Origin: an uncultured Candidatus Saccharibacteria bacterium
Lineage (GTDB): Bacteria > Patescibacteriota > Minisyncoccia > Phycocordibacterales > UBA6065
DNA length: 64,000 nt
Reading direction: 5' to 3'
Assembly: GCA_964368835.1 (NCBI GenBank)
Contig: CAYJCZ010000001.1
Location: 25,481-89,480, forward strand
Within the stretch, counting starts at the first letter, position 1. Every line of letters starts with the position of its first letter. A program made the translations under genes and the position numbers. The notes beneath the pieces are model-generated. The model worked only from the letters and a program-made list of their open reading frames with translations. It did not search any database and was not told the DNA's origin. Below are positions 10,758 through 61,823 of this stretch, in pieces.

Positions 10758-10792
10758 AGATACGATGTACATTAGCAATTTTTAGCCATTTT

Positions 10793-28834: not shown

Positions 28835-28907
28835 CCGCCCATAGCTCAGTCGGTAGAGCAGCTCCCTTTTAAGGAGAGGGTCCCAGGTTCGATTCCTGGT
28901 GGGCGGA
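28835..28907 (+). tRNA. tRNA-Lys (anticodon TTT)
   Basis: CCGCCCA-TA-GCTC-AGTCGGTA-GAGC-A-GCTCC-CTTTTAA-GGAGA-GGGTC-CCAGG-TTCGATT-CCTGG-TGGGCGG-A. Canonical D and T arms, with one G-A mismatch at the base of the anticodon stem. Confidence 0.8.
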
Positions 28908-28996
28908 CAAGTGTAATCATTGTCGGTGGACAAATATTTTGACTTTAAAGCTTTGCGGAGCTACTCTTTGAAAGTTGCATCCCTTGCAATGCCTCA

Positions 28997-33933: not shown

Positions 33934-35664
33934 ATGACAGTATCTTTTAATGAAGAAAATCAGGATAAAAAACTCGAAGAATTCAATCATCGAGAACAGG
34001 AGGACGTTGCCCAAATCGTTGCGAGCCGTAACGGTCTTGAATACATAGACCTTACTGTTGTGGGTATCAGCATGGATGCTCTTCGTCTCATACCTATCGA
34101 AGAAGCACGTGGCTCAAACATTGCCCCCTTCTCTCTTGTGGGTAAGCGCCTAAAGGTTGCCGTCTCATCGCCGGTAAATTCAAAAACACTTGCGGTTATC
34201 GAGCGCCTAAAAAATATCGGATACGACGTAGTGATGTTTGTTGCCTCTCCCCTAAGCCTTGATAAAGTGTTTGGTCGATATTCTGACCTTACATTCACCA
34301 CAGAAACAAAGGCTGGTGCACTTGAAGTATCAAGCGAAGACATTCGTTCGTATATTGGAAAACTTAAATCTATCGAAGATGTTAAAAATGGCGTCGGTGA
34401 AATTTTGAAGCTTACAAAATCATTCCGAATTTCAAAAATTCTTGAAATTGTACTTTCAGGAGGTCTTGCGACCAAAGCTTCCGACATTCACGTTGAGCCA
34501 GAAGAAGAATACGCCCGCCTCAGATACAGACTCGATGGTGTGCTCACAAATATCATTAACTTTGATCTTGAAACATACAAACTCCTTCTTTCTCGTATAA
34601 AACTTCTCTCAGGACTTAAGCTCAATGTTAAATCTGAGGCTCAAGACGGCCGCTTTAGCGTGAAAGTTGGTGAAGATGATATCGAAATTCGTACCTCAAT
34701 CCTCCCTGGCGCATACAACGAATCAATCGTACTTCGTATTCTTAATCCAAAATCTATTCAAGTTCCGCTTGAGGATCTTGGTATCAATAGCAAATTGATG
34801 GGAATCATAATGAAGGAGGTCGCTCGACCAAACGGAATGATTCTTGTGACAGGTCCAACAGGTTCCGGAAAGACAACAGCCTTGTACGCATTCCTTCGAA
34901 AAATTCACACACCCGACGTAAAGATAATCACTATTGAAGATCCGATCGAATACCATCTCGCTGGTATTGTTCAAACACAAGTTAATCCAGACAAAAATTA
35001 CACCTTTGCACTCGGACTCCGTTCAGCACTCAGGCAGGACCCAGATGTCATCATGGTGGGAGAAATTCGAGACGAAGAAACAGCAAAGATTGCCGTAAAC
35101 TCTGCAGAGACAGGACACCTCGTGCTTTCAACACTTCACACCAACTCTGCTGCCGGTGCCTTCCCTCGCCTCATTGATCTTGGTGTTAATCCAAAAACTA
35201 TTACATCTGCAGTGAACATTGTTCTTGCACAAAGACTCGTGCGAACGCTTTGTACATGTAAAAAAGAAGTCCTCCTCGAAGGTGAACAGAAAAAATACGT
35301 AGGGGATGTCATAAAAAGCGTAATGGATAAATCGCTTACTGCAGGACTTCAGACGGAAAAGATGTGGCTGCCTGTTGGTTGCGACAAATGTAACAATACT
35401 GGGTACAAAGGACGTATTGGTATCCGCGAAGGTGTCATTGTTGATAGCAGCTTGGAAAAAGTAATCGAATACAGCACAAGCGAACATGAAATAAAGCAGG
35501 CAACAAAAAGCCAAGGTATCCCCGACATGCTTCAAGACGGTATTATTCGTGTCCTTCAGGGTGTTACCTCTCTCGACGAACTCAAACGAGTGATTGACCT
35601 TACCGAAGAATTGCCTGAAATAGAGAAAACAGAGGAAAAACCTGTCGAGACTCCCCTCGTATAG
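33934..35664 (+). CDS. pilB: type IV pilus assembly / type II secretion ATPase (PilB/GspE family)
   Basis: T2SSE_N-like N-terminus, Walker A GPTGSGKTT, Asp box, Walker B and His box, and a C-terminal tetracysteine (CTCKK...CDKCNNTGYKGR). Confidence 0.9.
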   Translation: MTVSFNEENQDKKLEEFNHREQEDVAQIVASRNGLEYIDLTVVGISMDALRLIPIEEARGSNIAPFSLVGKRLKVAVSSPVNSKTLAVIERLKNIGYDVVMFVASPLSLDKVFGRYSDLTFTTETKAGALEVSSEDIRSYIGKLKSIEDVKNGVGEILKLTKSFRISKILEIVLSGGLATKASDIHVEPEEEYARLRYRLDGVLTNIINFDLETYKLLLSRIKLLSGLKLNVKSEAQDGRFSVKVGEDDIEIRTSILPGAYNESIVLRILNPKSIQVPLEDLGINSKLMGIIMKEVARPNGMILVTGPTGSGKTTALYAFLRKIHTPDVKIITIEDPIEYHLAGIVQTQVNPDKNYTFALGLRSALRQDPDVIMVGEIRDEETAKIAVNSAETGHLVLSTLHTNSAAGAFPRLIDLGVNPKTITSAVNIVLAQRLVRTLCTCKKEVLLEGEQKKYVGDVIKSVMDKSLTAGLQTEKMWLPVGCDKCNNTGYKGRIGIREGVIVDSSLEKVIEYSTSEHEIKQATKSQGIPDMLQDGIIRVLQGVTSLDELKRVIDLTEELPEIEKTEEKPVETPLV

Positions 35665-44917: not shown

Positions 44918-45146
44918 ATTCCTAGTATATCTTTATATCTTCTTTAAAGAAGACTATTACTATTAATAGGGCTGTGTATATGTTAATAACTTTTTATAGG
45001 GCCTCAGGTATAGTTATTTTGATTTTTTAGACTTTAGTTTCTGTGGATAAGCACCGATTGGATTTAATAACTTTTGATCGCTATCAACTTATCCTCCTAC
45101 ATATCCACATATCTACACGTCTTTTCCACAACCAACCAACATGGGT
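44918..45146. promoter_or_regulatory. putative oriC segment: DnaA-box cluster plus AT-rich unwinding region between dnaN and dnaA
   Basis: Perfect DnaA box TGTGGATAA at 45042-45050 (reverse orientation) and three near-consensus forward boxes: TTATCCTCC at 45089-45097, ATATCCACA at 45101-45109 and TTTTCCACA at 45122-45130. AT-rich tract at 45011-45040. Confidence 0.65.
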
Positions 45147-47975: not shown

Positions 47976-49214
47976 CTAGTCAACTAATTCGTATCTCCAC
48001 ACTATCTGGTCTTTCTTATTCTTGAAAACGAGGACTGTTTCGCTTTGGTTAAGGCTGAGGTCGATCATGTCCATACTTACACTTGATTCAAAGAATGGGT
48101 TCACTAATTCTTTTGTTTCTCCGCTTACGGTGTCGATTTTCCACAAACTGTCTGAAAACGAAACCCTGCCCTTGTACCATTCGTCAGGATAGTTGCTAAG
48201 TGGCGGAAGTATTGGTACCGCACAATAAACTACAGTTATACTCCTTTTACTCCAGGTGCACTTATCAACGAGTGTGGAGATACCCAACGATTCAACATTT
48301 CCTGTTTTTATGTTTACGAGAGAAGTTTTTATTGAATTGGATTCGTATGAAGATGTAAGGGCAAGTGTGCCATCGTTGTTAGCCAAAGCCTCAAGACCTC
48401 GGACGCTAGAGCTAATGTTGGTGTAGGAGCCGTTTGTAGGATTAACAAGGTATGAGGTTCCAAGGGCTTGATAGCTTGGTCTGCTGTAAAGAGTTATACC
48501 TGTTTGAGAAGTCCATTGTGATGACCAATCACCAAACGATGAACTCCAGACTGATGCCTTTGACGATCCGTCAAAATTTGCAGTTATTCCAGACGCACCG
48601 TTTGAGTTTTTGGTTATATAAAATATTTTCGTACCATACACAGTCATGTCGGCAATGTTGTCTGGTAGAGGTGTCGCTTCAATTGCATCTTCAGGACTTT
48701 CTAGCGGGAGTATTTTTGCACTTACGGTCTTTATAGAATCATTGCCATTTAGATAGCGAACAATAACCTGTGAACCATCGCTCGCCCAAAGCGCTTTGTA
48801 TATTTTAGGCATAGTTACATTCGAAATCTTGCTTACCTGGGCATTACTGCTATTGGTTTCAAATATATGGCCTGTAGCACGTTCAATGTATCGTATAAGT
48901 GTTGAGCTCGCTTTGTCGAAAGCTATGATTCCAGCAGCAGGTGTTGTTGATATTTGTCGCAATCGAGGAAGACCTGTTACTTCGTTTATCTCCCCTATTT
49001 CTGCAACTGTGGTTGAGCTCGTGTTTGTAGAACCAAAACCATCCTGACCATTTGAGGTTGTGTTATTCCCAAACGGAAAAAGATTATCATTAGAAGGTGC
49101 TGGGGTTTCTTCGGTTACTGTGCCAGTACCTGTTCCCATGAGGAAATACCATCCCAACCCTCCAGCAATGAGGATGAGTAGAAGTGTGACAATGAAGAAT
49201 GTTTTTTTTGACAT
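47976..49214 (-). CDS. secreted/membrane-anchored S/T/N-rich protein, hypothetical
   Basis: N-terminal TM/signal (FFIVTLLLILIAGGLGWYFL), 412 aa, beta-rich. First gene of the T4SS-like block as read on the minus strand. Confidence 0.45.
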   Translation of the reverse strand: MSKKTFFIVTLLLILIAGGLGWYFLMGTGTGTVTEETPAPSNDNLFPFGNNTTSNGQDGFGSTNTSSTTVAEIGEINEVTGLPRLRQISTTPAAGIIAFDKASSTLIRYIERATGHIFETNSSNAQVSKISNVTMPKIYKALWASDGSQVIVRYLNGNDSIKTVSAKILPLESPEDAIEATPLPDNIADMTVYGTKIFYITKNSNGASGITANFDGSSKASVWSSSFGDWSSQWTSQTGITLYSRPSYQALGTSYLVNPTNGSYTNISSSVRGLEALANNDGTLALTSSYESNSIKTSLVNIKTGNVESLGISTLVDKCTWSKRSITVVYCAVPILPPLSNYPDEWYKGRVSFSDSLWKIDTVSGETKELVNPFFESSVSMDMIDLSLNQSETVLVFKNKKDQIVWRYELVD

Positions 49215-49216
49215 AA

Positions 49217-50248
49217 TTATTTAGGTGCTTGAGGGGTGAGTTGGAACACGGGTTTTACTGGTTTTGGATAAGGCTCCTTTCCTGTTTGAACTACCGTGTT
49301 TGTCCATTCTATATAGCTATCCATGTATTGAATTTGCAAACTGTATTGCTGTTGAATATTGGCAATTTCCTCTGAATTATATACAGGAACCTGCTGAGTT
49401 TTAAGGTTAGACATGGTCACAATGTTTTGAGCCACATTGGTTTTGAAAGATTCTGATTCCCTTACCATGTCAGCAATTGATGATTTTTTTGCTGCGTTTT
49501 CGAATGCAGTGCTTTGTCCAATTATACTATTACCGATAGCCGCTAAACCATTTAAACGAATATGGTTTTTTTCTTCTGTGCTTCTAGCAATCAAAGCGTT
49601 ATCCGCATCAGATTGTAGTTGAGCCAAGTCTCCGGTAAAGTTCGGATCATTCTTTGCCGCATCTAATTCAGCTTGTTTATCTGCAGCTAACTTGTTTGCG
49701 GCCTCAAGGTTAATGCGAGTTTGTTCGCTTTGAGCTCTGACCGCCTGGAGCTGCGCACGTGCGGCATTTAATGAGGCATCCTCCGACCCGCCACCACAAG
49801 GAACCCTTTTACCACTTATCTCTTCGACACAACCAATTGGATTTCCGAGGCTTAAATCCTGATTAACGAGATCAACGTTAATGGTTTTAAGAATAAGATA
49901 TGAACCAAGAAGGAGTAGAAGGCCGAATATTGCACCTTGCCAGTGTTTTTTAGCCTCAGACTTTCCAGAGATTGCTTCTGTGGTTGCATATTGAACACCT
50001 GCCCAAATAATCATGCCTATCGCCAAGATTGCAGCGATCCCAATTGAGATACCGTAAATGTTGGTAATAATAAATGTTGGGTCAGCTGGCTTACCTGTCT
50101 CAGTTATTCCTGGGATGGTTGATAGTGCACAATACGTTCCCTCAGGACAACTTGGGACCGCTTGAGCAAGTGCCACGGAAAGAGGTAGTACAAGTGTAAT
50201 AACTGTTAGAAACACTAGGCCGGCAAAAGAAATGAATTTATTTTTCAT
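49217..50248 (-). CDS. TrbC/VirB2-like pilin-type membrane protein with long C-terminal coiled-coil extension
   Basis: Signal peptide (…SVALAQA) is followed by two hydrophobic helices separated by a short polar loop (IYGISIGIAAILAIGMIIWAGVQY ... AIFGLLLLLGSYLIL), the VirB2/TrbC topology. A roughly 200-aa coiled coil rich in Ala/Gln follows. A 1-nt overlap with the upstream gene suggests translational coupling. Confidence 0.45.
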   Translation of the reverse strand: MKNKFISFAGLVFLTVITLVLPLSVALAQAVPSCPEGTYCALSTIPGITETGKPADPTFIITNIYGISIGIAAILAIGMIIWAGVQYATTEAISGKSEAKKHWQGAIFGLLLLLGSYLILKTINVDLVNQDLSLGNPIGCVEEISGKRVPCGGGSEDASLNAARAQLQAVRAQSEQTRINLEAANKLAADKQAELDAAKNDPNFTGDLAQLQSDADNALIARSTEEKNHIRLNGLAAIGNSIIGQSTAFENAAKKSSIADMVRESESFKTNVAQNIVTMSNLKTQQVPVYNSEEIANIQQQYSLQIQYMDSYIEWTNTVVQTGKEPYPKPVKPVFQLTPQAPK

Positions 50249-51222
50249 TATTGCAGTATGGTTATTGAAGCCTGTCCTCCTTGCATGATGTTTGTTTGAT
50301 GTTGAGCTCGGAATTCTATAACCGTTTGTCCTGATACGTTGGCATCACCTCGGAGTACAATTTCTCTTTTATCCTTGAAGCTCGATACGTTTGCACCATT
50401 CATGAGCCAGTCAATGCTAAGGCCATTACCTTTATTTAAAGAGAGGTCAAAAGGAGTTGCGCTGAGAGTGAGTTCTTCTGCCTTCAAGTAAAATCTGTTT
50501 GAAAGAGCGTTCTCATAAATAATTCCGTAGAGGGGGCTATTCTCATAGAAAACGATCTCAGGTGTTATTGGGACAATAGAAATTGTATCTCCTGAACTCA
50601 TGTCATCCGCCTGTGTCGAAACAAGGACAGATATTTCATCCTCCCCTCTTACATAGCTCTCTTGCCTTCCTTTATAAACATCTTTTCCGTAGCCAGATTG
50701 ATCTGGATCGATTGTTCCATTTTTCTTCCATGTATAAACAAGTGTTTTTGGATTTATGCGTGTTCCTGTGGTTGTGAAGAATTCAGGTAATGCGGTTACG
50801 GTAAATGTTGACCCGTAAGTTGAGAGGGCCTTCCCTTTGTAGAAAGGTGGTGTGTAGCCATCTGACTCCCAAAGCAAAGAAACATTCGTTGTTCTGATTG
50901 TAGTGCTTTTTGAAAAATACTTTTTGTTCGTACCAGTTACTTCGACAGATACTTTTGTAGATGAACCAGCCTTTCCCATGGTGGTGGTAATTGAAGTTAC
51001 ACCCTTACCTTTCTGAAAAACCTTACCGTTCACATACCATGTGAATGTGGCAACATCAATATCTGTATCAGCGCTCGCTGCTTTTACGGTTACTTCTCCG
51101 TTTGGCCGAGGAAATTGCGGACTTACCTGTAGTGTAAGTTCATTTGTTTGTGCATGAGCCGTCAAAAAAACGAAGCTCGAGAGGAATAGAGTAAAAAAAG
51201 TGCTTTTTATCAAGCGAAACAT
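50248..51222 (-). CDS. secreted beta-rich (Ig-like) protein, hypothetical
   Basis: Signal peptide (…FLTAHAQ); 324 aa. Confidence 0.4.
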   Translation of the reverse strand: MFRLIKSTFFTLFLSSFVFLTAHAQTNELTLQVSPQFPRPNGEVTVKAASADTDIDVATFTWYVNGKVFQKGKGVTSITTTMGKAGSSTKVSVEVTGTNKKYFSKSTTIRTTNVSLLWESDGYTPPFYKGKALSTYGSTFTVTALPEFFTTTGTRINPKTLVYTWKKNGTIDPDQSGYGKDVYKGRQESYVRGEDEISVLVSTQADDMSSGDTISIVPITPEIVFYENSPLYGIIYENALSNRFYLKAEELTLSATPFDLSLNKGNGLSIDWLMNGANVSSFKDKREIVLRGDANVSGQTVIEFRAQHQTNIMQGGQASITILQ

Positions 51223-51309
51223 ACGGTCATTCTATCACGAAACTACCTGTGGATAACAAACCACCTGTTAATAAATGAAAAATCACCCCGTAAGGTGATT
51301 TTTCTTGTT

Positions 51310-53115
51310 TTATAACTGTGCGTTCTTCTTTGCTTCTTTGATTGCGAGTATCTGTGATGGATCTGAGGTAATTATTTGGTCTTCGGTATAAGAAGCAATG
51401 ATTTTTATGGCCACATGCTTTAGTCCGACGAAGAATATGCCCTCCCCTACGTCTGATTCGAGCAATAAGTACTTTTCCTCATCTGTGAGGTTAAAGACTT
51501 GCTGGAGTCTGTCTATAGACGATGGAGACTGTTTTAGAAGGATCTGGATAGAAGAGTTGGTAATGATTGGTGTTCCATAAGGAGATTTAAGGAAGTCGTC
51601 CACGTCCTGGGTGATTGTTGCCACTCCTAGGAAGTATTTTCGTCCTCTTTTTGCCAAACCAAGCAAGAATGAGGCCGTATCTTCAGATTTCATCATCCAC
51701 CACGCCTCGTCGATCACAAGAAGGCGCTTTTTGAGGTTTTTTCGAATCGCATTCCAGATGTAGTGGGTAACGATATACATTGCAACAGGTTTAAGCTCCT
51801 CTTCCATGTCTCGAAGTGAGAATACGATGAATTTGGCACCGATATCGACGTTTGTTGGCTGATTTATAAAGCCAGACCAAGTACCTTTGGTGTATTTGGT
51901 GAGTCTTTGAACAAGCGACTCCCCTCCTTCCATACCAGCAAGCACTAATTCGAAGTCAGAAAGGAGTGGTGGCTGGATAGATTTGAAGTCAGAATCAGGA
52001 GTGATGTCTTTGAGGGCGTATGTTTCGGTAATCGCCTTGTCGATAAGTGCGTCCTCCTCAGGTGTAAGACCACCCATCATGATTCGGAAGAGGCCAACAA
52101 GGTTAATGATGTTTGAACGAAGCACATCTGCGCCAGATTCGTCTTCTCGAGGAACAGGAAGATCAAAAGGATTGATATGGTGCTCTGAGTTAAGTGAAAT
52201 GTTGAAATATTTTCCACCCGTAGCTTCTGCAAGGAATTCATATTCCCTTTCAGGGTCAATCACAATAACATCCGTATCAAACATGAGGGTTCGAAGGATT
52301 TCAAGCTTTGTTGTGTATGACTTTCCTGCACCAGATTTTGCAAAGGTGATTGAGTTATAGTTTTCAAGAGAAAATCGGTCGAAAAGCACAAGTGATGAGT
52401 TGTGGCGGTTGATTCCGTAAAGAATTCCCTTGTCAGACGTAAGGTCAAAGGAAATAAACGGGAAAAGTGAAGAAAGTGGCGATGAGTTGAGCTTTGAATG
52501 CACAAGAAGTTCATCTGTTGCTGTAGGAAGGTTTGATTTATAGCCTTGTTCTTGCTGGAAAAGTGCTGGTTTTACGTATACAAGCTTTGATTCAAGGATT
52601 GATTTGATTTCAGACTCTGTTTTATCAAGCTCTGCTTCAGAATCACCATAAATAGAGATATATACACCCACATCAAAAAGTTTTTCAGTAGCTTGCTGGA
52701 GCTGGTCTCGGAGATTTTCAAGATCCTGGTATGCAGTATCAAGCATTGGGTCTCGTACAAGCCCCTTCTGTTCCCTGATTGCAATCTGGCTTTGTACTTC
52801 AGCCACCTTCTTTTGGAATTGTCGTAGCACCTTTGCTGTTTCAACAGGATGAATGAATATTGAAATGTTGAAGACTTTGTCGAGATTGATGATTGGAGCA
52901 AACCAGCTTTCTCCGAGGAAGCGTGGGTATGAAATTACAAAGAAGCTACGGACAATTTTATCTCCAAGGTTGAGTTCTCGAGGAGAAACCTTAAGTGCAG
53001 AGGGTGCAATAACATCCTTGAGCTCCAAAACACCAGCCTCATAGATTTCCTGAGGCATTATTGGAGCAATTCGCGCTCCCTCGTCTTTCTTTTTTAAAAA
53101 ATCAAAGATTCCCAT
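51310..53115 (-). CDS. VirB4/TrbE/CagE-family type IV secretion ATPase, C-terminal ATPase portion
   Basis: Walker A FAKSGAGKSYTT and Walker B LLVIDEAWWMM (DEAW), the VirB4 arrangement. Start chosen at MGIFDFL, 4 nt after the stop of the upstream N-domain ORF. Confidence 0.8.
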   Translation of the reverse strand: MGIFDFLKKKDEGARIAPIMPQEIYEAGVLELKDVIAPSALKVSPRELNLGDKIVRSFFVISYPRFLGESWFAPIINLDKVFNISIFIHPVETAKVLRQFQKKVAEVQSQIAIREQKGLVRDPMLDTAYQDLENLRDQLQQATEKLFDVGVYISIYGDSEAELDKTESEIKSILESKLVYVKPALFQQEQGYKSNLPTATDELLVHSKLNSSPLSSLFPFISFDLTSDKGILYGINRHNSSLVLFDRFSLENYNSITFAKSGAGKSYTTKLEILRTLMFDTDVIVIDPEREYEFLAEATGGKYFNISLNSEHHINPFDLPVPREDESGADVLRSNIINLVGLFRIMMGGLTPEEDALIDKAITETYALKDITPDSDFKSIQPPLLSDFELVLAGMEGGESLVQRLTKYTKGTWSGFINQPTNVDIGAKFIVFSLRDMEEELKPVAMYIVTHYIWNAIRKNLKKRLLVIDEAWWMMKSEDTASFLLGLAKRGRKYFLGVATITQDVDDFLKSPYGTPIITNSSIQILLKQSPSSIDRLQQVFNLTDEEKYLLLESDVGEGIFFVGLKHVAIKIIASYTEDQIITSDPSQILAIKEAKKNAQL

Positions 53116-53119
53116 ATGT

Positions 53120-53755
53120 TTATTTGAGTGATATTGGCTTTTCGGTGTCTCCAGGATTGAAAATTTTGTAGAAAAGCTCGACGATCTCCTCGGTACCGAG
53201 CTCAACGGTTCGAATTCCACAACGTACAAGACCCTGAGTTACCACACTCACCCTTTGCTCGAGCTGGCTTCTGCGTTCTTCAAAGTCTGCAATTTTCTTT
53301 TCCGCAGTCTGCGCTGCGTTCTTTTTTTTGCCCAACATATCTGCCACACCGCCCGAGTTTATCATTGCGGGGGTGTATGGAACCACAACAAAGAATGTTT
53401 TTGTCATGATGTTTGAGTTTTCCGTAAAGTTTTTTATGAACTGAATGTATTCTCGTGTCTGGATTTTGAGAAGATCGCTCATTTGTTCCTTAAGTCGGTT
53501 TTCTAGGAGAGCAATATACGGTCGAATATCGAGTTTTCGAGACTGAATGAAAATTTGTACTGAAAAATCGAGTGAGTTAAGGAAGTTTTGGAATTGAAGC
53601 AGGATAGATTGCTGCTCATCTGCAGATTTAAGAGCAAAGTTAAGTGACGATGCCATAACAATTCCACGCATGGAGTCATCTTTGAGGATCACTATCCCCT
53701 GTCTGATCTCTTTTATGGGAACGAACTCTTGAGTAGTTTTAGCGTTTACTGCCAT
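53120..53755 (-). CDS. VirB4-family N-terminal domain protein (split from ATPase portion)
   Basis: FVPIKEIRQGIVILKDDSMRGIVMASSLNFALKSADEQQSILLQFQNFLNSLDFSVQIF matches the conserved N-terminal domain of Gram-positive-type VirB4 homologues (PrgJ/TcpF-like). Stop is at 53120-53122. Confidence 0.6.
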   Translation of the reverse strand: MAVNAKTTQEFVPIKEIRQGIVILKDDSMRGIVMASSLNFALKSADEQQSILLQFQNFLNSLDFSVQIFIQSRKLDIRPYIALLENRLKEQMSDLLKIQTREYIQFIKNFTENSNIMTKTFFVVVPYTPAMINSGGVADMLGKKKNAAQTAEKKIADFEERRSQLEQRVSVVTQGLVRCGIRTVELGTEEIVELFYKIFNPGDTEKPISLK

Positions 53756-53791
53756 GCAAATAATTTATATGACGATTATATCGTACTTATC

Positions 53792-54232
53792 TTAGAACGT
53801 CTGCTTTCCTCCCTGATTCTGCGCCGGAGTCTGACTCTGCTTGATATCAAGTGACCATGTAAGATCCTTTAACTTGCTGTCCGAGAGCTTTGGGACGTAA
53901 AAACTTGAGGTTGGGTCGTTTTCTTGACCTGGTTTTGCAACGATTTGCTTGTCTACCTTCCTCCAGAGATACAATTTGCTCTGTGTGTAGTAATTAAAGG
54001 CAGATTCTAGGACTGATATGAAGGGTTTGTTGTTGATTTTATAGAATGCGAGCGCAAGTGAGAGGCCGAGTGTAGGCATTATAAAGAGGGCTTTGAGGAT
54101 GAGGGTGGGTATGAAGGTGAAAAAGAGAAAGGAGATACCTGCCCCACCAAGCAAATAGATAAACTGCTTGATGGTAAGCGGTCCAAATATCTTATCTTCG
54201 ACTTCTATGAATTGAGGAACTTGAAATCGCAT
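53792..54232 (-). CDS. PrgI/VirB3-like small membrane protein
   Basis: QVPQFIEVEDKIFGPLTIKQFIYLLGGAGISFLFF plus a second TM. It lies immediately upstream of VirB4 on the minus strand, as PrgI does. Confidence 0.5.
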   Translation of the reverse strand: MRFQVPQFIEVEDKIFGPLTIKQFIYLLGGAGISFLFFTFIPTLILKALFIMPTLGLSLALAFYKINNKPFISVLESAFNYYTQSKLYLWRKVDKQIVAKPGQENDPTSSFYVPKLSDSKLKDLTWSLDIKQSQTPAQNQGGKQTF

Positions 54233-54258
54233 ATCGCTATTATACCCCAGAAGGAATA

Positions 54259-54618
54259 TTATTTTTTAACAATGCTGGTAGCGCCTGAGCCTGGGATTTT
54301 AATACCAGCCTTATCTTCAGCGCGTGTAATGGCAACCATTATGAGGACTTCGAGAGTAAGTGCTGGAATTATGCTTATAACAGGTATGAACTCAACAATC
54401 GAAGCAGCTGCATATGTCACTCCTCTTTTCTTTGAAAGCACACTCACACCATGCATTGAGAAAAAAAGAGCAATAAGGCCCTGACTGATGATGACCACTA
54501 TTACATTTATTCCAGGTATAAGTGACAAGAGGTCACACACGACCGCAAAAGCAAGGAGGAGTATCGCCTCTGAATTCCCTAGTCTATTTTTTGTGGGCTT
54601 TTTCTCCTCATCATTCAT
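54259..54618 (-). CDS. small polytopic membrane protein, hypothetical
   Basis: 119 aa, 3 TM; 1-nt overlap with the upstream gene. Confidence 0.4.
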   Translation of the reverse strand: MNDEEKKPTKNRLGNSEAILLLAFAVVCDLLSLIPGINVIVVIISQGLIALFFSMHGVSVLSKKRGVTYAAASIVEFIPVISIIPALTLEVLIMVAITRAEDKAGIKIPGSGATSIVKK

Positions 54619-55298
54619 TATTTTGCGGGTTCTCTATATGGATCGCTTGATGTGCTGGGTGATTTAATTTCAGGCTTTTTTTCCTCAAGTTGTGTTCTTT
54701 GGACGGGCATAATCATTGAGCCGGATAGTTTGCTGCCAATGAAATTCTGAGCAATTTGCTGCTTTGCGTTTTCCCATGGTTTTTGCGGACCGCGCTTTAT
54801 TTCTACGTCTGGTTCTGATTTTACGGGAATCATAGGTAGTGAGGGTTTAGGGTTTTCTATTTCTCCTAATATGTCAGTTTTTCTCAAAACATCTGAAATT
54901 CGGATGTTTTCTGGGGGTGCTGATTTAACAGGATTAATGATGTTGTTGTACCTAGGTTTTGAAGCCTCGTAAGTTACGGGCTCTTCTTTACGAGGATTTA
55001 TTTTCATAAGAGATTCTCGGAGAGGGACAAAAATCTCAATATTCACCTCAGTTGTAATTTCTATAGCTTCTTGGGCTGTTATTTCTAGCAGGGTTTCAAT
55101 TTCAGTAACAAAATCATCTGGATGGAGTAGTCCTAACATTACATTGCCAACAGCGGTTGTTAGATCCCCCACCTTGTCGATCAAAAGATTATGTTTTTTA
55201 CCTATAGATTGCAGTTTTGCATACGTGTCAGCAGAATCTATGGCGCTCCGTATGTCTTGCGGGAGGCTATCGTATCTTTTTTTAAGTTCTTGGTCCAT
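54618..55298 (-). CDS. hypothetical protein (226 aa)
   Basis: Clean ORF inside the T4SS-like block. Confidence 0.4.
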   Translation of the reverse strand: MDQELKKRYDSLPQDIRSAIDSADTYAKLQSIGKKHNLLIDKVGDLTTAVGNVMLGLLHPDDFVTEIETLLEITAQEAIEITTEVNIEIFVPLRESLMKINPRKEEPVTYEASKPRYNNIINPVKSAPPENIRISDVLRKTDILGEIENPKPSLPMIPVKSEPDVEIKRGPQKPWENAKQQIAQNFIGSKLSGSMIMPVQRTQLEEKKPEIKSPSTSSDPYREPAK

Positions 55299-55311
55299 AT
55301 TTGGGTTTCAA

Positions 55312-57651
55312 TTAAGATTCTTTGTCTTCACCATCTTCCGCGTCGGCTTTTTTAGGGCCGGGAGCTCCCCCTTCATCAGCACCTGTTGCCCAAGCATCAT
55401 TTTTCTTCTTAGTTGCCTTAGACCTGCTCTTTTTGAGCTCACCAGCGAGACCTGTTCCCCACTCCATCTCTGGCTCACCATTTTTATCCACAATCGGATT
55501 TCCAGCAGGATCCTTCTTCTGTTTACCAGATCCTTCTTTACCAATTATTTTATTTTTAATAATGTTAGCCACCGCATTACCCGCCGTTTTCTTTTCGCTC
55601 AGATCCCCCATGGTTTTTGCGATTTTTAATGACTGCTGAAGTGCCTGTGTCTGATTTCTGGTCTGTATAAATTTGTCTTCGTAATTGGTTATTGCCTTAT
55701 CAAGATCGGCCTCTATCAAACTACCTATTTTGTCAGCCTCCTCGATTTCATCACCTGTTGCCTCTTTCTCAAGATTCATAACATAAAGGTATTTCTCGCT
55801 TGCCTTAAGTGCATTTGCTTGAGCAATATCATTCTGACTAATAAGCTTCTGATGCAATTCACGAAATGCCTTGGCCTGCGAGATAATTTTTATTTTATCT
55901 TTACGGACAGTTCGTTCTCTTTGGACCATAAAGTTTTCTAGGCCTCTTGATGCCTCATCAAAATTTTGGTTGACTCCGTTGTGGTCAGCTGCCATAGCAG
56001 CCTTCTCGAGGTTGTTAACAGGAATATTTGCATCAACCATAAGGTTTGTGATTCCCTGTGCTTCCTTTTGCGCATCTGTCTTCTGTGCTTTTGTATAAAG
56101 ATTACCTGCTTCCGTTCTCAGTTTGTCAGCATTCTTCTGCTGAGCTTTTTTACCTATAGCAATCCAGTTAAAGATACTTGATCTACGTGATTCAGCGTAT
56201 GCCATCTGCTTATCAAGACCATCCTTGTCATCACCAAACTTTGCTGCGTATTCTTTGTCGGCTTTCTCCTGATCCTTGGTCATTTGACTGAATCCACCCT
56301 TACCTCCTGGTTTTCCTACATCAACACCAACTGTTTTTGCGATTGATGCAAAAGGCGCAGCTCCACGTATGTCGAAGCTTGATTCTGCACCCTTGCGTGC
56401 AACAGCAAGGCTGGCTTTACCTCGAATCTGGTTAACACTGCGAGAGAATGCATTACTACCCACTTTACCTGCTGCCATATTCTGAAGATTTTCATTCTGA
56501 GTCATGTTTGCTGCACGGGAACCAATGAATCTTCGTCCACCAAACGCGGTTAAGGCAATACCACTTGATCCAACTCTTGTCATAAAGTTACTTGCACCAC
56601 TTGCAATACCTGAGGCCGCCTTACCCAACTGACCCGCTGAATCTTTAGCAACCTTAAGACAAATAAGGAGCGCACAAATAACAATGATGTACTTAAATAC
56701 CTTTCCCGTGTCGATACCTGCAACAACTGCGGGATTTCCGCTAAAGAATGATGCCCAAACACTGCTTGCCTCCATGTTATTAATAAGTTGAAGGCTTATG
56801 TAAAGCATCAAGAGGTAGACAATTGGAAACGTCACAGCATCTACAAGTTCACCCCACCACTTCTTTGAGTATTCTTCGATTTGTGGGAGAAGACCACCGA
56901 TGAAGCCGATAGGTGATAGAACGAGCAAGAAAATTATTGTCACAGCGCGTGTCATAAATAGTATCGCGGTGTACATAAATACGTACGTAGCAACCAAGAC
57001 TACAATAAGCTTGAGAACTGGAGTAATAATTCCACTATCGTTTAGAGTTTTTGCAAGGAGAGCTGCGTTTCCAGCAGGATCCTCCCAGAGTCTGAAAATC
57101 TCCAGCTTTGACGCAATGAGGGCGCTGATACTAGTGCTGGCTCCATTGGCTTTAAGTGATGCAAGAATTCCGCCGTAGAGCCAATTTCCGAAAATATTAC
57201 TTACATCAACAAATACCTTTGTAAAGTAAAGGCTAAAGTTGATGATTAGGGCCGCGATGATAAGTTGAGTGAGTCTGCGTTTTGTATCAAAGTTACTTAG
57301 ATTAACTATTGTTTGAATTGATATCCAGATGAGCGTAAAGATAAAGAACAGGTTGCAGATGTCACGAATAACTACCCAAGATTGGTTTATAACCGTAAGG
57401 TTTCCGAAAATATACGCGGTACCAAGTGAGAATCTCACCGCATAGTCCAAAATCATACCGGTAAACGCCATCGCTCCAGCCGCCAAAGGCAAAACAATAA
57501 GCTCAAAAAGCTTTCCAATGTAGTAGGTCGGATCTACGAATTTAAGAAGATCAGTAACACCCTGTGCGTGCGTGACGTCAGGTGTTATGAGTAGCAAAGC
57601 CACCAGTGCGCCGATGAAGAGATATGTTTTTTTGTTAAAGAAAGATTTCAT
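55312..57651 (-). CDS. VirB6/TrbL-like polytopic membrane protein with long hydrophilic C-terminal tail
   Basis: A signal peptide is followed by at least 7 TM helices over about 400 aa, then about 380 aa of charged, Lys/Ala/Gly-rich sequence. Confidence 0.5.
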   Translation of the reverse strand: MKSFFNKKTYLFIGALVALLLITPDVTHAQGVTDLLKFVDPTYYIGKLFELIVLPLAAGAMAFTGMILDYAVRFSLGTAYIFGNLTVINQSWVVIRDICNLFFIFTLIWISIQTIVNLSNFDTKRRLTQLIIAALIINFSLYFTKVFVDVSNIFGNWLYGGILASLKANGASTSISALIASKLEIFRLWEDPAGNAALLAKTLNDSGIITPVLKLIVVLVATYVFMYTAILFMTRAVTIIFLLVLSPIGFIGGLLPQIEEYSKKWWGELVDAVTFPIVYLLMLYISLQLINNMEASSVWASFFSGNPAVVAGIDTGKVFKYIIVICALLICLKVAKDSAGQLGKAASGIASGASNFMTRVGSSGIALTAFGGRRFIGSRAANMTQNENLQNMAAGKVGSNAFSRSVNQIRGKASLAVARKGAESSFDIRGAAPFASIAKTVGVDVGKPGGKGGFSQMTKDQEKADKEYAAKFGDDKDGLDKQMAYAESRRSSIFNWIAIGKKAQQKNADKLRTEAGNLYTKAQKTDAQKEAQGITNLMVDANIPVNNLEKAAMAADHNGVNQNFDEASRGLENFMVQRERTVRKDKIKIISQAKAFRELHQKLISQNDIAQANALKASEKYLYVMNLEKEATGDEIEEADKIGSLIEADLDKAITNYEDKFIQTRNQTQALQQSLKIAKTMGDLSEKKTAGNAVANIIKNKIIGKEGSGKQKKDPAGNPIVDKNGEPEMEWGTGLAGELKKSRSKATKKKNDAWATGADEGGAPGPKKADAEDGEDKES

Positions 57652-57654
57652 GGG

Positions 57655-59280
57655 CTATTGGACAACTATTCTATGGTCGTGACGATCTAAAGTATTTCCC
57701 TGCTGGTCGTAGATAACTGTTTGAAGTGTATAGTTTCCAGTAGTTGCACCCACTTTTTTGTCTGCTGTGATCCTGATTGTGAAAGGTGCATTGTCATCCG
57801 TCCAGATGTCACTCCATCCTACCGTTGCCTGAGGTGCAGAATTGACTGGGAAGCTTGCAGAACTGCCGTCCGCTCGCACAAATTCAACGTTGAAGTTTGT
57901 AAATGCTAGAGCAAATGGTACATCTGACATGCTTGCTGTGTCTTTGAATGCTGTGCGCATAAGCAATCCATCGGTTCGATAATTAGTATTCATACTAATT
58001 TCATAGAAGAAAGGATTGCCGTCGTTTACCGCTATAGATGTACCTGGATTGAGTTGTAGATCAAGTGTCTGTGTACCTGTTGGGCCGCCGATTGTAGGAG
58101 TACCTGTTGAACCGCCGCCATTATTGACGTTAACAGGAGGTGGGTTGCTTATTGCGGCATTAACTTCGGCTGTCCCAACTGTAAGACCCGTATTAATTGC
58201 ATTTGAAAGATCGGTGCCGCCAGTTATTACAGTTTGTCGTGCTGCTGCATTGTAGTCTACTGGATCCACAACAGTTTTTCGTGGGCCTCGTGTACCACCC
58301 AAAAGACCGAATGACTTATCCATGATCTGCTTCATAAGTTGGTTTGAGAGCGCATCAAAAACAGCGTTGATGTCGTTTGCAAGACCGATCTGATCAAGAG
58401 GCATGCCGAGGGTTTTGGTTAGTTGCTCTTGAACTATTGCACCCGGTGTCTCAATCGTACAGATTGGATTTGCAAGTTCAGAACCGAGAGTTTGTCCACC
58501 TCCTTCTTTAATGAATCGTGCTGTCGCTTCTGCCTGTGTTTCGCAGTACTTCCAGTTTTTGAATCCCCTGCCCCAATTAAGGTATGTTTTTTCCTTTTCT
58601 TGAACATCAAAAATTCGTTTTGAAATTTCATCCTGCGCAATAGCAAATGCTCCGTACGCATTATTCTGAGGAATTGTTGTAACTTGAATCCAGTTATCCC
58701 ATCCAACACCTCCATTGCTGTCTACAAATCCGTTTACATTACTTATGATGTTGCTCAATGAACACGCTGACCTTTGTCTGTACGGTAGACGGCTTTGAGC
58801 AAGTGCAACACGAAGTTGGAATGAGAATCGAGAACAAAGAAACGGTGCATCTTTTGAAAGGAAATCCCCAATCACATCATCAGCAGCATCACTTAACATG
58901 CCGCTCAGATCCGTTGCAAATCCTGGGTTTCCTTGGAATCCGTTGTTGATCCAGGCAACCGTTTTTTGGGTTATGTCATTTAAAAGTGCCTTGGCCATCT
59001 TTACGACAAGTGGTTTGAAGATGCAATCTTCAACAAAACTTCCAGCCACACTGACTTTTGATGTCGCATCGTTTTCAATAGCAACTCTAGTTATTGCATC
59101 AGCTGCAGCACTGAATCCGAGTGCGGTTGCAATTTGAGCTATGCAAGTAAGAACTTGAGCTTCAGATTTTTTTGGATAGAAAAAGAAACCGCTCGGAATC
59201 AAAAGAGTGATGAGGAGGAATGAAAGTACGGTTTTTTTGCAAAAACGAGAAAGCATTATCTCGAAAAGTATAGAGGTCAA
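57655..59280 (-). CDS. secreted protein (541 aa), hypothetical
   Basis: N-terminal signal/TM; Gly/Thr-rich PPVNVNNGGGSTGTPTIGGPTGT linker. Confidence 0.4.
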   Translation of the reverse strand: MTSILFEIMLSRFCKKTVLSFLLITLLIPSGFFFYPKKSEAQVLTCIAQIATALGFSAAADAITRVAIENDATSKVSVAGSFVEDCIFKPLVVKMAKALLNDITQKTVAWINNGFQGNPGFATDLSGMLSDAADDVIGDFLSKDAPFLCSRFSFQLRVALAQSRLPYRQRSACSLSNIISNVNGFVDSNGGVGWDNWIQVTTIPQNNAYGAFAIAQDEISKRIFDVQEKEKTYLNWGRGFKNWKYCETQAEATARFIKEGGGQTLGSELANPICTIETPGAIVQEQLTKTLGMPLDQIGLANDINAVFDALSNQLMKQIMDKSFGLLGGTRGPRKTVVDPVDYNAAARQTVITGGTDLSNAINTGLTVGTAEVNAAISNPPPVNVNNGGGSTGTPTIGGPTGTQTLDLQLNPGTSIAVNDGNPFFYEISMNTNYRTDGLLMRTAFKDTASMSDVPFALAFTNFNVEFVRADGSSASFPVNSAPQATVGWSDIWTDDNAPFTIRITADKKVGATTGNYTLQTVIYDQQGNTLDRHDHRIVVQ

Positions 59281-59292
59281 GATAATTATACA

Positions 59293-60198
59293 CTACTTTA
59301 GAAAGACGTATCCACTTTCAAGTGAGGAAAACTCTATTCCTCGTGATTTCAAATAGCTTGAAACGATACGCAGCGCAGGATCGAGTGTCTTAAGTCCCTG
59401 ATCATAGCTGAGCATCATCTTTGCTGCAGCTATAGGATCAGAATCAAGAAGTATCATTCCGTGTATACCATCAATAATAGATGAAAGTGAATTAAGGTAT
59501 GCCAAATGTGCTTCTACCAGGTTTTTTGGAACAGGAATTTGTGAGGCTAGTCTTCGGGATTCTTTATATCGAGCTAGATTCTGGGGTAATTTGGCTAGAT
59601 ATGAGGAGTCATCGGTTTCGTATGCTCTATTTACAAGTATAATTTCGTTTTCATAACCACTTGGTACGGGTTGGCTTACGGCAGCCCCCATAGCATTGCC
59701 ATATTCTTTGAGTTCAGATGGTAAATCAGTATCAAGCACAATTATATCGCCTGTTGTATAGGTTTTTTCAAATTCTGGACCTCCGTAATCCTCTAAAATG
59801 AGCTCATTAACAAACTGGAGCGTCGTGTTGTCGTCTAAAACCCCTCCCTGATTCTTAAAAGTGACATATTTTTGGAGAAGTGATCGTGAAAATCGCTCTG
59901 TTGCAGTTAAATTTTCCTCTTTTTCTGCATTAGCCGCATATTTTTCCTGCAAATCAGCTATTTTTTCCTCTGTCGAGCTCGCAGTGTTCTTTTTTAGGGC
60001 ATCTTCCCACTGGGCTATGTCAACTTGGCCATTTTCTATAGCCTTTTTTATGCTTTCTTGGGCAATCAAATCGATTTTTGTCTGAATTGAGTTAGATGGA
60101 GCCTTGTTTGCAGCTTTAAAGTAGATTCCTACTCCTATAATGAGTATTGCGGCTAGTAAAGAGAGACCAATGCTTGAAAAAAGGAATTTGCGAATCAT
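59293..60198 (-). CDS. membrane-anchored protein (301 aa), hypothetical
   Basis: N-terminal TM (FLFSSIGLSLLAAILIIGVGIYF). Confidence 0.4.
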   Translation of the reverse strand: MIRKFLFSSIGLSLLAAILIIGVGIYFKAANKAPSNSIQTKIDLIAQESIKKAIENGQVDIAQWEDALKKNTASSTEEKIADLQEKYAANAEKEENLTATERFSRSLLQKYVTFKNQGGVLDDNTTLQFVNELILEDYGGPEFEKTYTTGDIIVLDTDLPSELKEYGNAMGAAVSQPVPSGYENEIILVNRAYETDDSSYLAKLPQNLARYKESRRLASQIPVPKNLVEAHLAYLNSLSSIIDGIHGMILLDSDPIAAAKMMLSYDQGLKTLDPALRIVSSYLKSRGIEFSSLESGYVFLK

Positions 60199-60270
60199 AT
60201 GTCAAAAGTATATCAAGCTAATTACCTCCTTCATAGGTAAACGTGGACAAGAAAGTGGTATACTAGTCCT

Positions 60271-61014
60271 GTGAGGAGTATTTTTTCTTACATTTTCATA
60301 AGCCTCGTTATCTTTTTTGTACCGATTTTTGGCGTGAAAGCACAAAATATCACCGCCACGTCCTTTTCATATACTCCTCCGACTGTTGTAAGTAAGCCTA
60401 ATCCCCTTTCGAACGCCTCAACCAAGAAGTCTGTAAATATAAAGAGCTCAGCATTGGGCAAAACAGCTGGAGCAACTGCAAATCAGGTAAATCTTCAAGG
60501 ATTTCTTAATAAAGTACGAGCAAACGGCAAAAATATTCCTGAAATAGAAGGAATAGTTAATCAGATTAAGGTTGATGTCGCCACCTCGACAGATTTGACC
60601 GGCCTTTTCCTAAGACAACCAGGGATTATTCCATTTACAGGACAAGTTTCTCAATCGAGCCCATTGAAAGACAGACTTCTTTCGTTTGTTAACTACTTTA
60701 AACCAAAAGAGGCGTCTGCTGTCTCTACTCTTCCCTTTGGCGGCCCTCTTCTCTATTCATATCTATGTACCTGTAGTTACACATGGATTGTTTGGGTAGG
60801 GCCAACCGCAAGCGCAGCAACTTCTAACATGATTTTGGATTATATTCCGTTCTCACAGGCGTTCATGAAATATAACATTCCATATACATCACTCGTTTTG
60901 GGTAAATATAGCCCAAGCTCTTCAATGTGTTACATCTATTATGGATATGGCTGTATTAACCTTCCAATAACGCAAGGTCTCATTACTCCGCAGGTTGGCT
61001 CAAACGTATATTAA
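60271..61014 (+). CDS. secreted Cys-containing protein (247 aa), hypothetical
   Basis: Signal peptide (…IFGVKAQ); C-terminal Cys cluster (YLCTCSY, MCYIYYGYGC). Confidence 0.4.
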   Translation: MRSIFSYIFISLVIFFVPIFGVKAQNITATSFSYTPPTVVSKPNPLSNASTKKSVNIKSSALGKTAGATANQVNLQGFLNKVRANGKNIPEIEGIVNQIKVDVATSTDLTGLFLRQPGIIPFTGQVSQSSPLKDRLLSFVNYFKPKEASAVSTLPFGGPLLYSYLCTCSYTWIVWVGPTASAATSNMILDYIPFSQAFMKYNIPYTSLVLGKYSPSSSMCYIYYGYGCINLPITQGLITPQVGSNVY

Positions 61015-61823
61015 TCCCTCGCAAGCTTCATCCAGACATCTACACCTAACTCTTCTGCACGCGTGTTGGTGCTTAGGTTGAGTTTTTTGAATTTCTCTTC
61101 CAAAAGTTCTTTATCTAAAACGGCCTCAAGATTTGAAATCAACTTTTTTCTTTTTTGAGCGAAACCAGATTTTACGAATTCAAAAAAACGAACCTCCTCT
61201 TCTTTAGTCAAAAATGGATTGCGGATATTTTTTAGCTTTAAAACTGCTGAATCTACGTTAGGAATTGGGAAAAAATTTCCTCGAGACACGTTCATAACAA
61301 GCTCGGGTTCAGCGTACGCCTTTGTAGCAATCGACAAAATACTTTCCTTGCCATCTCGAGCCATAATGCGAGTTGCAACTTCTTTTTGAACCATGATGAC
61401 CATCATCGAAGGTCTACAGCTCGCAGACAGAAGATTCCGCATAAGTGCCCCTGTGATGTAGTACGGAATATTTGCGATTACTTTGTATGTTTGTCCGACA
61501 ATGGTCGCAACTTCTTCGTCTTTGATTTCAAGGATATCTCGATGGAAGAGCTCTAGTTTCCCTTCTTCAATTTCCTTTCTAAATTCCTGTGTCAGATGAG
61601 GAACAAGACGATTATCTTTTTCGACAGCCTTCACAAGCGCTCCGGCGTTTATGAGGGCGCGGGTGAGTACTCCTTTTCCAGGGCCAACCTCAAGCACAAC
61701 TTCCTTTTCTGTAAGTTCACCTGCTCGCACAATGGATTCAACTATACGAGGAGAAATAAGAAAGTTCTGCCCAAGTGATTTCTTTGCAGGGAGGCTGGTT
61801 CGGCTGCGGCGTGGTTTTTCCAT
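61011..61823 (-). CDS. rsmA: 16S rRNA (adenine1518/1519-N6)-dimethyltransferase RsmA/KsgA
   Basis: SLGQNFLISPRIVESIV and SAM motif VLEVGPGKGVLTRAL. Confidence 0.9.
   Translation of the reverse strand: MEKPRRSRTSLPAKKSLGQNFLISPRIVESIVRAGELTEKEVVLEVGPGKGVLTRALINAGALVKAVEKDNRLVPHLTQEFRKEIEEGKLELFHRDILEIKDEEVATIVGQTYKVIANIPYYITGALMRNLLSASCRPSMMVIMVQKEVATRIMARDGKESILSIATKAYAEPELVMNVSRGNFFPIPNVDSAVLKLKNIRNPFLTKEEEVRFFEFVKSGFAQKRKKLISNLEAVLDKELLEEKFKKLNLSTNTRAEELGVDVWMKLARD

Follow-up and report, generated by a model that had tools for sequence, protein, structure and literature searches.

What is a cluster of type IV secretion system (T4SS) genes doing beside the replication origin of an uncultured bacterium, and why is its VirB4 motor encoded by two open reading frames (ORFs)? 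The question is raised by a 64,000-nucleotide (nt) stretch of a genome deposited as an uncultured Candidatus Saccharibacteria bacterium of the Patescibacteria (assembly GCA_964368835.1, contig CAYJCZ010000001.1, positions 25,481 to 89,480; hereafter the window, with all coordinates counted from its first letter). The T4SS-like cluster consists of eleven tightly packed, co-directional genes on the minus strand (47976-60198) and one divergent gene on the plus strand (60271-61014), numbered here g1 to g12 from left to right. We put the probability at roughly 85% that the cluster encodes a chromosomal, non-conjugative T4SS of the Patescibacteria, derived from monoderm conjugation machinery of the mating-pair-formation type MPF-FATA and situated near oriC in a Paceibacteria-type genome. 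An earlier, sequence-only reading of this DNA had likewise proposed a T4SS-like apparatus that is fixed in the chromosome, is not conjugative and belongs to the Patescibacteria/Gram-positive kind, and this proposal is upheld by profile hidden Markov models (HMMs) of the components, by the housekeeping flanks and their synteny, and by the literature (PMC12102498, PMC12857230). The ORF coordinates and strands and the Walker A and B motifs were all verified in the ORF list and translations. The gene count was not: thirteen genes had been claimed where the ORFs number twelve, and the list had left out the 226-amino acid (aa) product of 54618-55298, which carries no transmembrane (TM) helix.

The motor is encoded by g4 and g5. 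The g4 gene (51310..53115, minus strand) specifies the VirB4 ATPase core, a protein of 601 aa with the Walker A motif FAKSGAGKSYTT (GAGKSYTT) and the Walker B motif LLVIDEAWW (VIDEAW), assigned by NCBIfam and Pfam profiles. It scores 372 bits, with a cutoff of 325, against conju_CD1110, the NCBIfam model for VirB4-like conjugal transfer ATPases of the CD1110 family, and spans positions 185-733 of the 752 in that profile; in Pfam it matches P-loop_TraG (95.7 bits) and also AAA_10. The neighboring g5 gene (53120..53755, minus strand) encodes a TrsD-like or 'TraC-like' (PF26593) protein of 211 aa, whose NCBIfam matches comprise positions 2-118 of the same conju_CD1110 profile, the mycoplasma integrative and conjugative element VirB4 model VirB4_plasma (E 2e-11) and TrsD/TraD (E 7e-6). 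On NF041427, the pGO1-type TrsD/TraD model, g5 reaches 25.9 bits vs a cutoff of 200, a score at which it is to be regarded as a homologue of those proteins, not as a member of that curated subfamily.

Searching with g5 brought up at least 8000 homologues, of which the top 120 (76-100% identity), from metagenome-assembled genomes (MAGs) of Paceibacterota, Parcubacteria and Taylorbacteria, are all 206-222 aa long and carry PF26593 'TraC-like'. When the 150 best representatives of clusters formed at 50% identity were inspected, 149 proved to be unfused, some of them with low-complexity tails. The sole fusion, P0182, is a protein of 797 aa whose residues 1-214 align to g5 and 225-796 to g4, and which matches the canonical VirB4_CagE profile TIGR00929 at positions 18-725 of 792. 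From the colinearity of the two window proteins with P0182 and with the conju_CD1110 and VirB4_CagE profiles, it follows that g5 and g4 together correspond to one VirB4, with g5 as the first portion of its N-terminal region. P0182 is encoded at 544-2937 of a related locus, L083 (NCBI MAG GCA_964615945.1, contig CAZTUR010000004.1), in the same context as in the window, PrgI...yidC-rnpA-rpmH-dnaA; the fusion may be genuine or an error of the MAG. Its linker resembles a read-through of the former stop codon and of 27 spacer nt, leading to the Met-Gly at which the ATPase itself starts, and the L083 locus is devoid of the g3-pilin-g1 genes between virB4 and yidC.

In the window, the junction between the two genes occupies 53116..53122 on the minus strand: the TrsD stop codon TAA (53122-53120) is followed by the 4-nt spacer ACAT and then by the ATPase ATG (53115), such that the minus strand reads ...AAA TAA ACAT ATG GGA... 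with the ATPase in the +1 frame. By its layout, this is a termination-reinitiation site, that is, a site of translational coupling. The earlier reading had asked whether the split represents a genuine two-polypeptide VirB4, a programmed frameshift or a sequencing error. Two ORFs lying 4 nt apart in different frames, an ATPase frame that stays open for 38 codons upstream of its ATG, and the existence of one fused homologue all speak for a sequencing or assembly indel, a recent pseudogenising frameshift, or programmed frameshifting into a single protein of 800 aa. Against such an origin stands a comparison with 80 related species-level loci, picked by VirB4 similarity and belonging to Paceibacteria, Parcubacteria or candidate phyla radiation MAGs. 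The two-ORF arrangement is present in 80/80 of these loci, TrsD ends at its own stop in every one, and, apart from two loci for which no start was assignable by script, the ATPase begins with an ATG of its own. Stops, spacers and frame relations vary from locus to locus: the TrsD-ATPase spacers measure mostly -4 (ATGA) to +10 nt and up to ~490 nt in a few, and frame offsets of 0, 1 and 2 are all common. With neither a fixed overlap nor a slippery site, programmed frameshifting and sequencing error are excluded. The ATPase N-terminus is moreover conserved immediately after the ATG (MGIFDF/MSxF) across the 80 loci, 120/120 of the closest g5 homologues have about 211 aa, and both halves are under purifying selection. 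An indel or frameshift thus opposed on every side keeps next to no probability, and the split VirB4 is, on the evidence of the consistently split orthologous loci and the 120 homologues, a genuine two-polypeptide motor conserved across the clade.

This motor is also under extreme constraint. Median identities, computed by tblastn over 79 loci, are 83% for the ATPase core, 66% for TrsD, 60% for DnaA, 56% for PrgI, 55% for UvrD, 50% for DnaN, 50% for YidC and 26-37% for the accessory proteins. The ATPase exceeds DnaA in identity in 49/49 loci, a comparison in which the VirB4-based choice of loci slightly favors high ATPase identity and which is to be discounted to that extent; by these values, the ATPase is the most conserved gene of the neighborhood, above DnaA. 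Nonsynonymous (pN) and synonymous (pS) divergence were referred to the closest genome, L003 (contig CAZBVG010000004.1). The ATPase shares 99% protein identity with its L003 counterpart at a pN of 0.017 and a nearly saturated pS of 0.57, the corresponding values being pN 0.027 and pS 0.62 for dnaA and pS 0.64 for dnaN. Because the ATPase pS lies near the dnaA/dnaN level, purifying selection must be behind the 99% identity; recent gene transfer was considered as its source and rejected, the synonymous sites being nearly dnaA/dnaN-like. Strong purifying selection acts on both VirB4 halves. The pilin (pN 0.43) and the VirB6-like protein (pN 0.38) evolve ~20 times faster than the ATPase, and the general pattern, as read from these alignments, is one of exposed components that evolve fast around an extremely constrained motor.

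The remaining recognizable components are of the type expected to surround such a motor. The g6 gene (53792..54232, minus strand) encodes a PrgI/VirB3-like membrane protein of 146 aa with a TM hairpin at residues ~27-59, which scores 37.3 bits on PF12666 PrgI (gathering score 27), matches TcpE more weakly, and is found in 80/82 of the related loci in which orthologues were counted, at a median identity of 56%. By analogy with better known T4SSs, it is the expected membrane anchor for the ATPase. The g9 gene (55312..57651, minus strand) encodes an extended VirB6-like polytopic protein of 779 aa, recognized by a scan for TM helices and a sub-threshold TrbL match, with ~8 TM helices in residues 1-335 and a charged, K/E/A/Q-rich tail of ~400 aa. 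The tail is hypervariable (median tblastn coverage 0.51), and TrbL is matched by 6/32 members of the family (31 orthologues and the window copy; best E 6e-5). 'Extended VirB6' proteins are a recognised class (PMC12857230), and topology and position fit such an assignment, which is nevertheless the weakest of the component identities. Finally, g2 (49217..50248, minus strand) encodes a VirB2-like T4SS pilin (PF18895) with a signal peptide, two TM helices (~67-85 and ~105-123) and a hypervariable C-terminal extension of ~200 aa that is alpha-helical, of coiled-coil character and A/Q/N/E-rich. PF18895 is matched by 40/41 sequences of alignment A7 (the window copy and 40 orthologues), six of them above the cutoff and the best at E 4.7e-10. 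Conservation is confined to residues ~1-135 (median coverage 0.36); the median orthologue measures 322 aa, and the orthologous tails are unalignable and draw only noise matches of the coiled-coil type. Matches to CHAP, M15 and He_PIG in single pilin orthologues were discarded, as none was seen in the ten longest orthologues. The HMM searches suggested earlier as a check have therefore come out in part: VirB4, PrgI and an Ig-like domain are supported above cutoff and the pilin through its orthologues, with VirB6 remaining weak and sub-threshold.

That components of this kind pass for conjugation proteins raises the possibility that an integrated conjugative element has its mating-pair-formation module here, or has left a decayed remnant of it: the ATPase scores above the CD1110 cutoff, and PrgI, TrsD and VirB6 are of the types found in conjugation systems. 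The surroundings of the cluster argue otherwise. It is flanked by dnaN-dnaA-rpmH-rnpA-yidC on one side and by rsmA (ksgA)-uvrD on the other, and the synteny of these flanks is kept across ~50 species. The likely oriC, with three DnaA-box-like 9-mers of which one is perfect, lies in the dnaA-dnaN spacer (45042..45130), 3-15 kb from the cluster; perfect DnaA boxes also occur just past dnaA in at least 10 related loci. Among 38 window ORFs scanned, which include all those of at least 300 aa, there was no relaxase, VirD4 or VirB9/10, as the sequence-only reading had held, nor any integrase or other type IV coupling protein (T4CP). The other scanned ORFs are housekeeping genes or at least not related to mobile elements, and include aminoacyl-tRNA synthetases, SHMT, PolA, RuvABC, a Mur ligase, Fpg, PBP1 and a PilB-type ATPase. 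GC content is uniform at ~0.41-0.43. Housekeeping flanks, the lack of relaxase, T4CP and integrase among these ORFs, and uniform GC content together indicate that the cluster is not an integrated conjugative element, and no obvious element of this sort enclosing it was seen in the 64-kb window. The constraint on the ATPase, stronger than that on DnaA, is the opposite of decay, and relaxases were detected in only 103/3,035 Patescibacteria genomes (PMC12102498). That the present locus is a conjugative element, intact or decayed, is on these grounds very improbable.

VirB11, which had also been reported as lacking, was not found either: the only ATPase of the T2SSE superfamily in the scanned ORFs is a 576-aa PilB-type extension ATPase of type IV pili (33934-35664, plus strand; T2SSE 399 bits, MshEN N-domain), 12 kb from the cluster. 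With this PilB-type ATPase and VirB4, the window encodes the ATPases of two distinct filament or secretion systems.

Some further observations concern the chromosomal setting. Seen from the dnaA-dnaN origin, the T4SS cluster together with rsmA and uvrD (47976-61823) lies to the right and on the minus strand, an orientation in which these genes would be transcribed head-on to the replication fork. The rpmH, rnpA and yidC genes are co-directional with the fork; the orientation is the same in related loci, and GC skew is weakly informative. In L001, the closest relative, a gene for a cell-wall hydrolase with LysM and Peptidase_M23 domains (1-47) lies directly beyond uvrD, and its counterpart would begin some 60 nt before the end of the window. 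An association of virB4 with VirB1-like hydrolases that carry M23/LysM domains has been noted in Paceibacteria (PMC12102498).

The assignment to a chromosomal, non-conjugative T4SS has to be weighed against several points in addition to the sampling of loci mentioned above. Another part of the genome could encode a T4CP or relaxase; VirD4 homologues occur commonly in Patescibacteria, usually at a site far from virB4 (PMC12102498). Among the family-less proteins of the cluster, none was recognized as VirB8- or VirB1-like. Two of the components fall below the thresholds of their own profiles, g9 with only 17.6 bits on TrbL/VirB6 PF04610 (gathering score 25.9) and the window copy of g2 with 22.6 bits on PF18895 T4SS_pilin (cutoff 26.6). 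The structural match of g5 to TrwK is weak, though specific: with an AlphaFold2 (AF2) model of pLDDT 65, the top 14 PDB matches were all TrwK/VirB4 chains of the R388 T4SS, the best with a probability of 0.99, E 8e-3 and TMq 0.45, and later matches were noise. Lastly, any cargo, the direction in which it would move and a pilus in the window organism are all inferred.

The other members of the cluster accompany this core with varying fidelity. Scans against Pfam and NCBIfam detected no family for g1, g8, g10, g11 or g12, and PDB-sequence profile searches with g11, g3, g10 and g1 (alignments A1-A4) gave nothing below E 0.07, so that no VirB8-like or VirB1-like assignment is possible for these four proteins. 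Most faithful is g3 (50248..51222, minus strand), a secreted, all-beta protein of 324 aa with a signal peptide and an N-terminal BiPBP_C Ig-like domain (PF06832, 32.1 bits vs 26.8). Its orthologues lie directly downstream of virB4 in 77/82 loci, and alignment A2 contains 13 invariant columns, 3 Trp and 4 Gly among them; from its distribution, g3 is a core accessory component. For this protein, the label 'secreted' given in the earlier reading stands, and it does not for the bitopic, membrane-anchored proteins that had been called simply secreted. One of the family-less proteins is g1 (47976..49214, minus strand), the product of the last gene of the cluster, a signal-anchored protein of 412 aa recognized from its ORF and a TM scan. 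It combines an S/T/G-rich linker with a conserved C-terminal globular domain, has orthologues in 61/82 loci, and shows in alignment A4 the invariant residues G115, K318, C319, W321, C331, W346 and Y347, among others.

At the upstream end, g10 (57655..59256, minus strand) encodes a membrane-anchored or secreted protein of 533 aa with a conserved, Cys/Trp-rich helical N-terminal half and a C-terminal beta-sandwich; alignments A3 and A6 show W102, C141, C165, C238, C266 and TPG270-272 to be invariant. Its AF2 model, built from 19 sequences, is poor (pLDDT 51) and confident only at ~395-533, and Foldseek searches with the C-terminal domain yielded only generic matches to Ig-like or fimbrial beta-sandwiches. 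The product of g11 (59293..60198, minus strand; 301 aa) has one N-terminal TM helix in the TM scan and an outside domain that reads as mostly alpha-helical; orthologues are present in 33/82 loci at ~26% identity. The g8 product (54618..55298, minus strand; 226 aa), with no TM helix and orthologues in 42/82 loci, is presumably cytoplasmic. Small and mobile by comparison of loci is g7 (54259..54618, minus strand), a membrane protein of 119 aa with 2-3 TM helices in the TM scan. Homologues occur in 24 loci, and all 23 with a complete ORF place g7 between virB4 and g3 (e.g. L011, L013, L014 and L016, at ~11820-12270), unlike the window, where it is situated between g8 and prgI; no g7 is present in the closest relatives L001 and L003. 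It is, to judge from these positions, a variable and relocating member of the cluster. The divergent g12 (60271..61014, plus strand) encodes a secreted protein of 247 aa with 4 Cys, according to its ORF and TM scan; it is detectable in only 6/82 loci, and its membership of the T4SS is doubtful.

How the cluster might be expressed is suggested by its junctions. The 1-nt TAATG overlaps reported earlier are present at two of them, 50248 (g3/g2) and 54618 (g8/g7). The remaining junctions measure 2-36 nt, with the exception of an 87-nt spacer following the ATPase gene. Right after virB4, this spacer contains a 12-bp GC-containing hairpin with a T-run (51277..51304, minus strand; RNAfold -24 kcal/mol for the spacer); comparable hairpins trail virB4 in L004, L005, L007 and L009, and the structure looks like an intrinsic terminator or attenuator between two transcription units. 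Further along the minus strand, an extended -10-like box, TGATAGAAT (51229..51237), is positioned 6 nt upstream of the g3 ATG, and a TGnTAnAAT box recurs 6-9 nt before this ATG in the window, L001 and L004-L008. It is a putative promoter for a leaderless g3-g2-g1 transcript. An extended -10-like box also precedes the g11 ATG at 8 nt (TGATATACT), and a like box precedes the g12 GTG at 6 nt (TGGTATACT). These motifs suggest that the cluster is organized as two leaderless units, one from g11, the first gene upstream, to virB4 and the other comprising g3, the pilin gene and g1. Two perfect DnaA-box 9-mers (TTATCCACA) lie within the T4SS cluster, at 51248-51256 and 55484-55492. Control by DnaA through the first of these, which falls in the virB4-g3 spacer, was considered and dismissed, for the box is conserved in 0/76 relatives and is attributed to chance.

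A working scheme for the apparatus can be inferred from R388 T4SS structures and from the genetics of Southlakia epibionticum. TrsD would dock on PrgI/VirB3 at the membrane and recruit or complete the hexameric ATPase in trans, and translational coupling would probably hold TrsD and ATPase at roughly equimolar levels. The ATPase would then power the extraction of pilin and its polymerisation through the VirB6 platform, and the outcome would be a conduit resembling a pilus, or a structure for contact, that spans the monoderm envelope. Host-specific contact would probably fall to those exposed parts that evolve fast, namely the pilin tail, the VirB6 tail, g1, g3, g10 and g11. The likely use of such a machine would be an essential exchange with the host cell, through effector export or uptake of host molecules, and not plasmid transfer. 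It is enticing to speculate further, with no great expectation of being right, that the pilin, if it polymerises, forms a filament with a dense, fast-evolving brush for host recognition, and, as a separate matter, that TrsD could serve as a regulated switch of assembly. If true, the pilin brush of this Paceibacteria clade would be another solution than the arrays of several pilins in Saccharimonadia, and it might help to set the host range.

Two other functions deserve to be set against host exchange. The first is that of a DNA-uptake machine, ComB- or Ced-like, which would supply nucleotides to an auxotrophic cell. CedB and CedD are weakly matched by the ATPase domain; nucleotide synthesis is lacking in Patescibacteria, and a role of this kind has been proposed (PMC11665869); and there is no T4CP nearby, as in ComB. 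The Ced matches are, however, at the level of generic P-loop similarity (34-49 bits vs cutoffs of 600-700), and nothing in the window links the cluster to competence genes. In S. epibionticum, furthermore, comEC is dispensable and the T4SS is essential (PMC12857230), which means that the essential role is not ComEC-linked transformation. We regard DNA uptake as an unlikely function of the locus. The second would make the apparatus an adhesive pilus or contact fibre only, with no substrate translocated. Such a view draws on the long and variable surface tail of the pilin, on the several Ig-like or adhesin-like proteins that accompany it, and on the lack of a coupling protein among the scanned window ORFs. 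Against it, the ATPase is conserved to an extreme degree and the system is essential in Saccharimonadia, both of which suggest more than adhesion, and for adhesion or motility the window has a separate type IV pilus ATPase. Secretion that needs no T4CP is also known from some T4SSs, among them Ptl and the Brucella VirB system (PMC12102498). A purely adhesive role is also improbable, if a shade less so than DNA uptake, and exchange with a host cell through a non-conjugative T4SS is the function that we favor.

Elsewhere in the window, three features may be recorded. A 1171-aa isoleucyl-tRNA synthetase (7263-10778, minus strand) carries a His_Phos_1 domain (94 bits) at residues 513-669, an insert that splits the class I catalytic domain in two; the insertion of an enzyme domain in an aminoacyl-tRNA synthetase is unusual. 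A 432-aa ORF (15592-16890, plus strand) has a ThyX (Thy1) domain at residues 21-210 only (55.6 bits), and its C-terminal ~220 aa have no match in Pfam. At 28835-28908 (plus strand), ARAGORN called a 'tRNA-Stop' (tta), whose interpretation as a suppressor tRNA was rejected on account of the anticodon arm and Rfam: the stem is GCTCC/GGAGA, the loop CTTTTAA and the variable loop 5 nt long, and Rfam scores a canonical tRNA at 68.8 bits. It is probably an ordinary tRNA-Lys(UUU), the 'tRNA-Stop' call being a register slip.

The window locus can be placed among three known systems. Like the canonical single-chain VirB4 (TrwK of R388, TIGR00929), TrsD and the ATPase core are colinear with the full-length motor. 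Canonical VirB4 is, in diderm systems, one polypeptide of ~800 aa that operates with VirB7/9/10, VirB11 and VirD4, none of which is encoded in the window cluster. A closer parallel is the TrsC-TrsD-TrsE module of pGO1/pSK41, which also has a small homologue of the VirB4 N-terminus (TrsD/TraD) immediately upstream of a VirB4-like ATPase and an adjoining VirB3-like gene. Unlike the window locus, this module is plasmid-borne and conjugative, is accompanied by a relaxase and a T4CP, and lacks a VirB2-like pilin. The window ATPase fits best the CD1110 model, which is of the CTn type and fused, and its split could have arisen together with that of pGO1 or separately from it.

The closest likeness is to the T4SSs of Patescibacteria themselves, as surveyed by Quinonero-Coronel et al. 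2025 (Microb Genom) in 3,035 genomes (PMC12102498). In that study, the Patescibacteria VirB4 proteins formed a monophyletic clade nested in MPF-FATA; TrsD was the most abundant component, with 2,272 homologues of which 1,664 adjoined virB4; PrgI, VirB6 and VirB2-like pilins were also found near virB4; and the virB4 neighborhood in Paceibacteria was that of dnaA/dnaN/rnpA/ksgA/rpmH (PMC12102498). The window locus agrees in its MPF-FATA-type VirB4, its separate, adjoining TrsD, its PrgI/VirB3 and its VirB2-like pilin, in that no relaxase was found nearby, and in its site beside dnaA, dnaN, rnpA, ksgA and rpmH; its tentative VirB6-like protein would fit as well. Unlike the loci of Saccharimonadia and Microgenomatia, with their arrays of several pilins, it encodes just one pilin, which is extended at its C-terminus by a long tail; its accessory proteins g1, g3, g8, g10 and g11 are lineage-specific, and otherwise nothing essential differs. 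Among T4SSs, that of Patescibacteria is the first for which essentiality to the carrier bacterium itself has been reported, in S. epibionticum (Wang et al. 2023 as cited in PMC12857230; PMC11665869), and it may build a pilus in a monoderm in a role described as 'completely unknown' (PMC12857230, PMC11665869). The locus studied here is this published chromosomal T4SS, and its split ATPase is the TrsD and VirB4 pair described in 2025; it adds one more example to an arrangement already in print and does not define a system of a new kind. To that arrangement, the present comparison contributes modest and mainly quantitative additions: a split maintained clade-wide with variable junctions, an ATPase conserved beyond the replication initiator DnaA, fast-evolving exposed parts that include a long and hypervariable pilin tail, and a probable organization into two leaderless units.

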